From a virus: a stretch of DNA of 51,875 nt. Position 1 is the first letter of the stretch; every line of letters begins with the position of its first letter. The stretch lies in IMG/VR virus record IMGVR_UViG_3300038420_000034; one strand, given 5' to 3'. The position numbers were made by a program, and so were the translations under genes. A model generated the notes under the pieces. It searched no databases. It was not told where the DNA came from and saw only the letters and a list, made by a program, of their open reading frames with translations. Positions 35,841 through 37,056 of the stretch are shown piece by piece.

Positions 35841-36019
35841 GCCGAGAGCAAAAACTCGAGATGGCCTACCGCCTGGCATTGACCTACCTCTCTGAGACGT
35901 GGACCCACAGCGAGTGCATCCGGTGGTGCAGTGACATGTCACTGCTGGTCCCAGAAGGAAAGATAGACCAGTCTAAGGCCAACCTGATCAAGGCCATCAA
36001 GGAGGCGCTCAAGCCATGA
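35837..36019 (+). CDS. small protein (60 aa)
   Basis: ATGA-coupled on both sides between the 59-aa ORF and the PurA-like gene. Confidence 0.5.
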   Translation: MSREQKLEMAYRLALTYLSETWTHSECIRWCSDMSLLVPEGKIDQSKANLIKAIKEALKP

Positions 36020-37056
36020 GCCACATCATCTCCGAGCATTGGGACCGTGAACTTGCCAGCCATGCTAAGTGGCCCCACGGTGACCATCGCATGAACCACA
36101 TCGTGGTCTATGGTGGGCAGTATGGAAGTGAAGGCAAGGCCTCAGCCGCCGAGTATTGGGCCAAGCGGCTGAAGGCTGAAAACCCACGCAAGGTGCTCTT
36201 TGTCATGGGTGAGAATGGGCCAAACTCCGGACACACCAGCTCTAAGGGGGTCACCAAGAACATCCCAGCCTCCAGCTTCTGGGCCGACTACGTCCTCATG
36301 GGCCCAGACACGGTCGTCGACCCAGAGGCCCTGAACAAGGACTGGAAGGCCGTCAACCGGCCCATCTTCATCCACGAGCACGCGGCCCTGCTCAGCCTGG
36401 CCATGAAGGCAGAGGAGGCCGACCTCGTCAAGCGCATCTCCTCCACCGGGTCAGGGACCGGCGCCGCCCGCGCGTGGAAGTTCTTCCAGCGCCAGCGAAG
36501 CGCCGTCGTGCAGGACGGGCACCTCTACACCCTCAATGACATCAGCGTCGTTGACGACAAGGAATACTTTGACATCGTTCGCCTGGCCGCCTCTGAGATG
36601 GCCATCTTCGAGTGCTCACAGGGGCTGTTGCTTGACACAAACTTTGGGCTGTTCCCATTCGTCACGTCACGCTCCACGCTGCCAAGGGTGGCGGTTGAGC
36701 GCAACGGCCTTGGTGGGCTTCCCTGGAGCTACGTAGGCGTCTACCGCACGTATCCCATAAGGACGGGCGGCCCATCTGGCCCGACCGCCGGTGGCGAGGT
36801 GACCTGGCAAAGCCTTGGGCAGCCCCCGGAGATCACCACGGTCACCAAGCGAGTCAGGCGGGTCTTCAACTTCTCAACGGCCGAGTTTGCAAAAAGCATG
36901 ACGCTGGCCAGGCCTGACGGGCTCATGTTCACCTTCCTCGACTACATCGGCCTGGACCCGAACAACGTGCGGGATCTCTACGAGTTCATCGAGTGGACCA
37001 GGTATCAAAACATCGCCATCTTGGTCTTGTCCGCGTTGTTGGTGACCTCAACATAG
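36016..37056 (+). CDS. adenylosuccinate synthetase family enzyme, short form (346 aa); PurZ candidate
   Basis: Collinear PurA motifs: P-loop GGQYGSEGKAS (PurA GTQWGDEGKGK). GPNSGHT (GHNAGHT). STGSGTGAA (TTGRGIGPA). FECSQGLLLDTNFGLFPFVTSRST ([24 protein letters not shown]). TTVTKRVRR (GATTGRRRR). Lacks the bacterial C-terminal extension. Confidence 0.75.
   Translation: MSHIISEHWDRELASHAKWPHGDHRMNHIVVYGGQYGSEGKASAAEYWAKRLKAENPRKVLFVMGENGPNSGHTSSKGVTKNIPASSFWADYVLMGPDTVVDPEALNKDWKAVNRPIFIHEHAALLSLAMKAEEADLVKRISSTGSGTGAARAWKFFQRQRSAVVQDGHLYTLNDISVVDDKEYFDIVRLAASEMAIFECSQGLLLDTNFGLFPFVTSRSTLPRVAVERNGLGGLPWSYVGVYRTYPIRTGGPSGPTAGGEVTWQSLGQPPEITTVTKRVRRVFNFSTAEFAKSMTLARPDGLMFTFLDYIGLDPNNVRDLYEFIEWTRYQNIAILVLSALLVTST

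Follow-up and report, generated by a model that had tools for sequence, protein, structure and literature searches.

A PurZ-like enzyme of a separate, metagenome-only lineage encoded in a phage contig from IMG/VR

The IMG/VR virus record IMGVR_UViG_3300038420_000034 is a single JGI contig of 51,875 bp, which was analyzed over its whole length and is called the window here. It contains a purZ-like gene whose product belongs to the adenylosuccinate synthetase (PurA) superfamily and carries Ser at the position of the PurA catalytic base. The assignment of this protein to the PurZ/PurZ0 radiation, and not to PurA, is well supported by sequence comparisons, and the protein is most likely a dGMP-dependent 2-aminoadenylosuccinate synthase. 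Its clade, found only in metagenomes and hitherto uncharacterized, is, as judged by sequence, a third lineage of the PurZ radiation, located between a PurZ0-like grade and the crown PurZ. The analysis establishes the family placement, the active-site residues, the fold, and the operon anatomy of the gene. Taken as a whole, the explanation that we consider probable is that the gene encodes a functional PurZ-type enzyme of this third lineage, which would feed host PurB and kinases to produce dZTP.

To our knowledge, the pathway whose committed step is catalyzed by PurZ is the only one known by which a Watson-Crick base of a genome is rewritten, with 2-aminoadenine (Z) taking the place of adenine. 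Current models include two phage lineages of such enzymes, PurZ and PurZ0, each with its own set of helper genes. In a third and well-populated lineage, in which the NTP pocket is hybrid and helper genes are missing, it can be tested directly whether the helpers are obligatory for Z-DNA and how the specificity for the donor shifted in evolution from GTP to ATP.

Affiliation with PurZ-type enzymes

The window protein matches Pfam PF00709 (E 9e-19) and PHROG 1211 ('2-aminooxy adenylosuccinate synthetase', E 2e-42), and both of these matches, like the match to PurZ of phage PhiVC8, are far beyond chance. Among the NCBIfam models, the best score was obtained for PurZ (142.1 bits), followed by archaeal-type PurA (80.4 bits) and bacterial PurA (62.9 and 62.3 bits). 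The three PurA scores are below the corresponding equivalog cutoffs of 368 (NF003295), 402, and 395 bits. In a single-sequence search of the Protein Data Bank (PDB), the proteins ranked as follows: PhiVC8 PurZ (E 2e-30, 109 bits), S-2L PurZ (E 1.6e-16, 64 bits), archaeal PurA (E 5e-13, 52 bits), Escherichia coli PurA (E 2e-12, 50 bits), and PurZ0 (E 6e-12, 48 bits). With a profile built from 114 family sequences, PhiVC8 PurZ was again the best match (163 bits), followed by S-2L PurZ (123 bits), PurZ0 (113 bits), archaeal PurA (106 bits), and bacterial PurA (at most 86 bits).

The AlphaFold2 (AF2) model of the protein is confident over its whole length (pLDDT 94.2, pTM 0.92). The top Foldseek matches of this model were the PurZ structures 7ODX, 6TNH, and 6FKO (query TM 0.81-0.84); the values for PurZ0 (7VF6) and archaeal PurA were 0.83 and 0.79, respectively. 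Thus, the domain and fold matches (PF00709, AF2, and Foldseek) demonstrate a compact, archaeal-like adenylosuccinate-synthetase fold, in line with the short form of ~340 aa described in an earlier note, which was made from the letters of this DNA alone and had proposed the gene as a candidate purZ.

The landmark motifs of the PurA family (Table 1) are all present in the window protein and are collinear with the family, in the order P-loop, GHT, SSTGSG, SQG, IRTGG, TTVTKRVRR, and TFLDY. Both this arrangement and the Ser at the catalytic-base position of the GDEGKGK loop, where PurA has Asp13, had been read correctly in the earlier note, as confirmed by the alignment and the motif coordinates. 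The Ser is found in all 23 near-family sequences (22 relatives and the window protein) and in 120 of the 121 more distant representatives, the remaining one being gapped at this position. This exchange is regarded as diagnostic in the literature: of 147 phage PurZ/PurZ0 proteins, 100% carry Ser at this position, 99% of PurA carry Asp (PMC12884076), and substrate selectivity is lost in an S14D mutant (bioRxiv 10.1101/2025.10.22.683976).

Active-site residues were compared in an alignment of the window protein with PurZ of phages PhiVC8, S-2L, OH, and Bhz9, two actinophage PurZ0, and E. coli PurA; the list of dGMP-pocket residues was taken from the same preprint. At the positions of PhiVC8 F12, S14, T262, P233, W252, and G256, the window protein has Y, S, T, P, W, and G. 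This alignment, proposed as a check in the earlier note, revealed dGMP-pocket residues and a Ser13 of the PurZ type. Counterparts of PurA His41 and Gln224 are retained together with the TTVT aspartate loop, described for PurZ as T273-T276 (PMC8342488). In total, 42 of the 42 family-invariant residues are kept in the window protein.

The substrate (dGMP), the NTP donor, and above all the genome-level consequence discussed below are inferred, the first two from homology. In the proposed reaction, the 6-oxo group of dGMP would be activated by the γ-phosphate of an NTP and displaced by L-aspartate, yielding dSMP, the nucleotide N6-succino-2-amino-2'-deoxyadenylate. Subsequently, dSMP would be converted by host PurB and kinases to dZMP and dZTP, and the latter would be incorporated opposite T in the phage DNA.

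The start of the gene at position 36016 is well supported, because a Shine-Dalgarno sequence AGGAGG is located at a distance of 10 nt and the ATG overlaps, in an ATGA, the stop codon of the preceding small open reading frame (ORF). This overlap is consistent with translational coupling, and together the two signals bear out the ORF of the earlier note, whose non-canonical GSEGKAS P-loop was also confirmed. The JGI record (P0001) starts not at this codon but at Met26, and in the relatives the N-terminus lies only ~5-7 residues ahead of the P-loop, compared with the longer N-terminus of the window protein. Identical copies of the 346-aa protein are called in two more assemblies, and from Met26 onward the JGI record agrees with them, which makes three independent assemblies in all. 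Samples containing the contig are the JGI source sample, SRR12951269, and ERZ27249786. The codon-usage score of the gene is typical for the genes of the contig.

A separate lineage with a hybrid active site

When 1.84 billion cluster representatives were searched exhaustively, ~23 clusters scored at least 184 bits and all others at most 138 bits, which is a sharp gap. Clustered at 50% identity, the lineage comprises ~23 groups, and its relatives with at least 43% identity number more than 100. Members of the clade were not found in the NCBI isolate collection (best match, 33% identity), and the closest PurZ among 50,697 GenBank phage records is at most 33% identical to the window protein. A megablast search with the 28-48 kb part of the window yielded no match among GenBank phages.

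Phylogenetic trees were built by neighbor-joining (NJ), a distance method, with 100 bootstraps and with E. coli PurA, and no archaeal PurA, as the single outgroup. The near family was monophyletic in 100/100 bootstraps, and near family plus crown PurZ excluded the PurZ0 references in 85/100. The window protein was located inside the most recent common ancestor of the crown PurZ in only 11/100 bootstraps and outside it in 89/100, and it never grouped with the PurZ0 references (0/100). The near family is nested between the PurZ0-like grade and the crown PurZ in these trees. Ser13 is present in all 143 non-PurA tree sequences having a residue in that column. A position inside the PurA clades, regarded in the earlier note as fatal to its proposal, was not recovered in the NJ trees with their single PurA, where the window protein lies within this all-Ser radiation. 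The candidate purZ of that note holds for the enzyme superfamily, as seen from Ser13, the dGMP pocket, and the best matches, but not for membership in the characterized PurZ, since the protein has a metagenomic clade of its own and does not reach the PurZ model cutoff.

The active site combines features of both known lineages. The P-loop is GSEGKAS in the window protein, GSEAKG in PurZ0, GDEGKG in PurA, and GSTGKG in PurZ. At the guanine-binding T-K-L-D motif of PurA, the window protein has T-F-L-D, PurZ0 has T-M-L-D, and PurZ has N-F-x-N. Thus, the PurZ0 signature, a GSE P-loop plus the retained Asp of T-K-L-D, is present as GSEGK and TFLD, whereas the signature of the crown PurZ, the type of PhiVC8, S-2L, and SH-Ab 15497, GSTGKG plus N-F-x-N/Q-Y, is absent: GSEGKAS and T-F-L-D-Y agree with it in Phe and Tyr only. 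In PhiVC8 PurZ, the corresponding residues F295 and Y298 stack the adenine of ATP. Because the NTP pocket is hybrid in this way, GTP, or both GTP and ATP, would be the more likely donor. The replacement of Val by Thr in IRTGG was found, in the sampled alignment, only in this subfamily and one other small group; the equivalent Val241 of S-2L PurZ adjoins the sugar C2' (PMC8342488).

Table 1. Features of the purZ-like gene and of other genes in the window
Feature	Coordinates	Strand	Remarks
purZ-like coding sequence	36016..37056	+	346 aa; alternative start Met26 at 36091 gives 321 aa
Shine-Dalgarno AGGAGG	36000..36005	+	10 nt ahead of ATG 36016; read from sequence
P-loop GGQYGSEGKAS	36112..36144	+	Ser codon 36127..36129 at PurA catalytic Asp13; Glu14 kept as in PurZ0 and PurA
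GHT	36229..36237	+	Counterpart of PurA catalytic acid His41; invariant H48 in family alignment A3
SSTGSG landmark	36439..36456	+
SQG	36616..36624	+	Counterpart of PurA Gln224 (6-oxo purine contact)
IRTGG	36757..36771	+	Thr for Val (PurA V273, S-2L V241)
TTVTKRVRR	36835..36861	+	Aspartate-binding loop; TTVT as in PurZ
TFLDY	36931..36945	+	NTP-base pocket, PurA K331/D333 region; Asp as in PurA D333 and PurZ0; Phe/Tyr match PhiVC8 PurZ F295, Y298
Divergent short C-terminus	37015..37056	+	AILVLSALLVTST and stop codon; without family motif VSNxTGxF
Major Vault Protein (MVP) homologue	33031..35664	+	877 aa; heads the block; PF11978 E 9e-19, PF17795 E 1.6e-9, PDB MVP E 5e-11
Two small ORFs (59 and 60 aa)	35661..36019	+	Between MVP gene and purZ-like gene; 4-nt overlap with each neighbor, operon-like
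D12-class N6-adenine DNA methyltransferase	45026..46099	-	Intact; FGSGN and DPPY motifs
Thymidylate kinase (Tmk)	371..1051	-	PF02223 E 3e-40; ORF assigned by P-loop and match to Tmk of contig L003
Dihydrofolate reductase (DHFR)	26441..26923	-
Metallophos_2/phrog_547 phosphoesterase	28227..28796	-
Dual-specificity/PTP-like phosphatase	50398..50922	-	PF22741 E 3.5e-18
DUF4419 protein	39145..40419	-	424 aa; E 7e-33
Five tandem paralogous ORFs	2700..7874	-	~340 aa each; one tested: phrog_9600 'tail assembly protein'

Helper genes, genome context, and alternative explanations

Several observations, collected in this and the following paragraphs, weigh against a functional enzyme serving a Z genome. 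The PurZ score of the window protein is far below the 300-bit cutoff of the NCBIfam model (NF038379). The protein ends with LVLSALLVTST, ~10 residues short of the family consensus, and its C-terminus is missing the otherwise family-conserved VSNxTGxF, the counterpart of the base-binding loop S414-G416 of PurA. A frameshift near the 3' end of the gene was considered as a source of this difference and rejected, as the missing motif is present in no other frame. A widespread relative with 60% identity (P0382), found with its cluster mates on 18 contigs of up to 92 kb, covers residues 2-207 only, the C-terminal third being absent; either this copy has decayed or the gene is split. The missing TG loop and this truncated relative hint at relaxed constraint.

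The helper genes of the known Z systems were searched for with Pfam, PHROGs, NCBIfam, phmmer, and iterated profiles, the latter at relaxed thresholds. The phmmer queries were reference DatZ, MazZ-1, MazZ-2, DUF550, DutZ, DpoZ, PrimPol, PolB, NUDIX, DUF4406, and cpYpsA, and all were negative on the window. No DatZ (HD), MazZ-1/2, DUF550/DUF5664, DutZ, NDT/DmtZ, or DpoZ was found in the 52-kb window by any of the searches. The earlier note had likewise seen no clear DatZ or MazZ there, and a search for datZ, mazZ, and dpoZ, which it recommended for the rest of the genome, gave no partner within these 52 kb. In the reference crown PurZ loci, datZ and mazZ/DUF550 are located next to purZ, usually together with dpoZ, and this synteny is not seen in the window. 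Nor is the PurZ0 arrangement, in which dutZ is often accompanied by dmtZ or DUF5664: no dUTPase-fold, NDT, or DUF5664 match was obtained in 52 kb of an incomplete genome. Of the functions that could exclude dATP, neither DatZ nor DutZ/DUF5664 nor a polymerase selective for Z was found in the window, an incomplete contig in which no polymerase of any type was found.

The same local pipeline was applied to a control set of 76 other PurZ-type loci from IMG/VR, with 27-35% identity to the window protein. A dUTPase-like, MazZ-2, or DatZ gene was found within ~10 kb at 59 of these loci (78%), and PolA at 44. In contrast, such a partner was found within ~10 kb in none of the nine distinct contexts of the core subfamily, i.e., the window and eight others (Fisher p 8e-6); restriction of the controls to loci of at least 15 kb (24/34 with a partner) gave p 1.6e-4. 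The absence of partners is meaningful because this pipeline finds them at most other PurZ-type loci. The nine contexts include the window, a 230-kb contig with tubulin, ribonucleotide reductase (RNR), and ThyA, contigs with PARP, SIR2, Thg1, or ligase, and others. The purZ-like gene is the only gene family common to the core-subfamily loci. In the core lineage, this gene behaves as solitary, horizontally mobile cargo.

A different picture was obtained for P0041, a deeper branch of the subfamily (50% identity; Logan contigs L005/L006) found in phages of ~27 kb with a protein-primed PolB. Here, the purZ-like gene adjoins a dUTPase-fold gene, and the genome also encodes DUF4406 (NDT-like), NUDIX, and two glycosyltransferases. 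Such a PurZ0-style toolkit speaks for a Z-related role of the subfamily at large, and these phages may combine a hitherto undescribed Z-toolkit with a polymerase of family B. The 230-kb contig (IMGVR_UViG_3300032770_000002, L003/L020), which encodes a homologue with 67% identity, is jumbo-phage-like and has genes for tubulin, class II RNR, ThyA, and Tmk; the direct neighbor of its purZ-like gene is a cpYpsA (SLOG-family) gene.

The composition of the contig provides a further, not decisive, point against Z. The window contains a single GTAC site (28662) versus 73 expected under a Markov model (z -8.4), and GTAC is absent from three other contigs with purZ-like genes of the subfamily (L003, L015, and L005); the proven Z genome of S-2L does not avoid GTAC. 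For other palindromes, GAATTC was found 0 times versus ~9 expected from base composition, CTAG has an observed/expected (O/E) ratio of 0.54, and GATC is mildly depleted (O/E 0.77). The loss of GTAC in the window and the related contigs points to a GTAC-specific restriction system of the hosts. This loss, as well as the intact DPPY methyltransferase, would be easier to understand if A-containing sites remain visible to host enzymes, which does not exclude Z. Site avoidance is compatible with Z, since ~47% of the tested restriction endonucleases still cut dZ-DNA (PMC12944874). As an ambiguous clue, GTAC avoidance was set aside as evidence against Z.

The Dam-type adenine methyltransferase mentioned in the earlier note is indeed encoded in the window and is of the D12 class. 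The conflict that was seen there between this enzyme and a nearly A-free genome is weaker than supposed, as E. coli methyltransferases act on Z-containing sites, although ~10-fold less efficiently (PMC8342488). Its use to discriminate between Z and non-Z phages was rejected: its homologues in phages are distant and small in number, and no known Z-phage is among their sources. Further, incomplete Z-clusters give a lower substitution in E. coli than the full cluster (PMC8342488); the helper sets of Z-phages have been repeatedly replaced and some are recognizable by structure only (PMC12884076). The step from a PurZ enzyme to a Z genome, which was taken in the earlier note, thus gains no contextual support from the window or the eight other core-clade contexts. 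A fully Z-substituted genome is plausible; sequence reads would show its Z as A. Since no dATP-removing or dGMP-supplying enzyme and no Z-selective polymerase is visible, the substitution of A by Z could be complete or only partial; in the case of complete substitution, helpers may be located elsewhere in the incomplete genome or be of a novel type.

Among the alternative explanations, an ordinary auxiliary PurA, which would form adenylosuccinate from IMP, Asp, and GTP and boost the adenylate supply during infection, agrees with the PF00709 membership, the retained Glu14 and Asp of the guanine-binding motif, and the other nucleotide-supply genes (Tmk and DHFR) of the same genome. It is nevertheless very improbable: the almost universal catalytic Asp13 of true PurA (99%, PMC12884076) is Ser here, the PurA equivalog models score 22-80 bits versus cutoffs of 368-700, PurZ is first in every sequence, profile, and fold ranking, and the protein lies inside the all-Ser radiation. 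In this simple form, the PurA reading was rejected on Ser13, the sub-cutoff scores, and the PurZ-first rankings. A decaying or inactive PurZ relic carried as passenger DNA is also unlikely, though less remote. The C-terminus without its conserved TG loop, the relative on 18 contigs truncated after residue ~207, and the lack of partner genes would be explained by decay, whereas all family-invariant residues are intact, the AF2 model is confident over the full length, the Shine-Dalgarno sequence is strong and translation apparently coupled, codon usage is typical of the contig, and the same protein sequence was recovered in three independent assemblies.

Another explanation is that PurZ-type chemistry is present without a fully Z-substituted genome, the gene, as solitary cargo, giving only partial replacement, or serving another use (such as perturbation of nucleotide pools or poisoning of host replication) or an entry through GMP followed by RNR. 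We regard this as rather doubtful. The missing partners in the window and eight core-clade contexts, compared with 78% of the other PurZ-type loci, argue for it, as do the lower Z levels from incomplete clusters (PMC8342488), the extreme GTAC avoidance and intact N6-adenine methyltransferase, which suggest that conventional anti-restriction is still in use, and RNR, ThyA, and Tmk close to the gene in the 230-kb relative. Two residues point in the same direction, the clade-specific Thr next to the C2' of the sugar and the Arg that is invariant where PurA has R303, but Thr is isosteric with Val and Arg occupies this position in the PurZ of phage OH as well. The contig is moreover incomplete and helpers may lie in its missing parts, partner sets of Z-phages are repeatedly replaced, with some found by structure only (PMC12884076), and restriction-site avoidance is, as noted above, compatible with Z. 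Beyond the enzyme itself, a bolder proposal, which we put forward only tentatively, is that the clade is a third functional type of PurZ, a single gene spreading among large unrelated 'dark-matter' phages with no dedicated helper for dATP clearing, dGMP supply, or Z-selective polymerization. Possible reasons for such independence are a different entry, e.g., acceptance of GMP and subsequent formation of dZDP by RNR, helpers of a new kind encoded by ORFs without annotation, or deliberate partial Z substitution alongside the methyltransferase and site avoidance. The reading preferred for the gene itself is still a functional PurZ-type enzyme of the third lineage.

The remaining genes of the window were called with a codon-usage model, which agrees with the database calls; contig L001 is identical to window positions 26015..38775. 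No terminal repeats are present in the contig, and no polymerase, helicase, terminase, or portal was recognizable in it by Pfam and PHROG scans. It looks like a part of a larger tailed-phage genome of mostly unknown genes, and it is considered incomplete because of the missing terminal repeat and the missing polymerase and terminase. When the terminal genes of the contig were looked up in other assemblies, only a 2.7-kb fragment or nothing was found.

Within an otherwise minus-strand region, four genes form a plus-strand block that ends with the purZ-like gene. The MVP homologue of this block, noted as context only, has MVP shoulder and vault-repeat domains; in the variant contig L002, a deletion has reduced its gene to a remnant ORF of 107 aa. 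Prokaryotic or metagenomic MVP homologues number more than 2,600, and the closest of them (48-62% identity) include proteins from metagenome-assembled genomes of the candidate phyla radiation (Parcubacteria/Paceibacterota). The two small ORFs have no Pfam or PHROG matches. In contig L014, a Band_7/SPFH gene is located near the purZ-like gene.

Elsewhere in the window, genes for a virion protein, an HNH protein, and endonuclease VII were found, as well as a glycosyltransferase match (phrog_14945, E 2e-40). Given this glycosyltransferase, Tmk, and DHFR, a pathway of pyrimidine hypermodification is possible; no thymidylate synthase was seen in the window. Of the hydrolases without an assignment, only the phosphoesterase might conceivably have nucleotides as substrates, which is pure speculation. 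The DUF4419 protein and the dual-specificity/PTP-like phosphatase are unusual phage cargo. On the same strand beyond the five paralogues, after two small ORFs, lies a gene for a 1701-aa protein with a He_PIG Ig-like domain.

Comparison with known systems

Members of the lineage are found in jumbo-phage-like genomes as well as in the phages of ~27 kb with PolB. If Z is present in these phages, the ecological range and the toolkit diversity of Z genomes are wider than isolate-based surveys suggest; if they lack it, Ser13 alone is an insufficient marker of Z genomes in metagenomic screens.

The PurZ of PhiVC8 (PDB 6FKO/6FM1/6TNH) and S-2L (7ODX) are ATP/dATP-dependent, dGMP-specific succino-aminodeoxyadenylate synthases. 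They share with the window protein the short ~340-aa fold (TM 0.81-0.84), Ser at the Asp13 position, the TTVT loop, and the Phe and Tyr of the NTP pocket, and they are its best sequence and profile matches, yet with only ~33% identity. Unlike them, the window protein has GSEGKAS in place of GSTGKG, Asp in place of Asn/Gln at the position of PhiVC8 N297, no YPD insertion (Y244), Thr at the position of S-2L V241, and a shorter C-terminus. The loci differ as well, as no datZ, mazZ, or dpoZ was found adjoining the window gene.

The actinophage PurZ0 (7VF6; phages of Arthrobacter, Microbacterium, and Gordonia) is said, after work by Tong et al. in 2023, to be GTP-dependent. In the text of one paper, the preference of PurZ0 and PurZ is given as 'ATP and GTP, respectively', at odds with both its own introduction, where PurZ uses ATP, and the bioRxiv preprint; the order is probably inverted. 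PurZ0 shares with the window protein the GSE P-loop with Ser13, the Asp of T-x-L-D, the lack of the YPD insertion, and a similar fold (TM 0.83). Unlike PurZ0, the window protein has GSEGKA and not GSEAKG, and its Phe and Tyr stand in place of Met and Gln; PurZ0 is also the weaker sequence match (48 bits with the single sequence, 113 bits with the profile). In the genomes with PurZ0, dutZ is present in 98 of 98 (PMC12884076), whereas none is detectable in the window.

The short archaeal PurA, represented by that of Pyrococcus horikoshii (5K7X/2D7U), shares with the window protein the compact architecture of ~340 aa as well as Glu14 and the T-x-L-D Asp. Unlike the window protein, it has the catalytic Asp13; its substrate is IMP. 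As a match to the window protein it is weaker than PhiVC8 PurZ, both with the single sequence (52 versus 109 bits) and with the profile (106 versus 163 bits).

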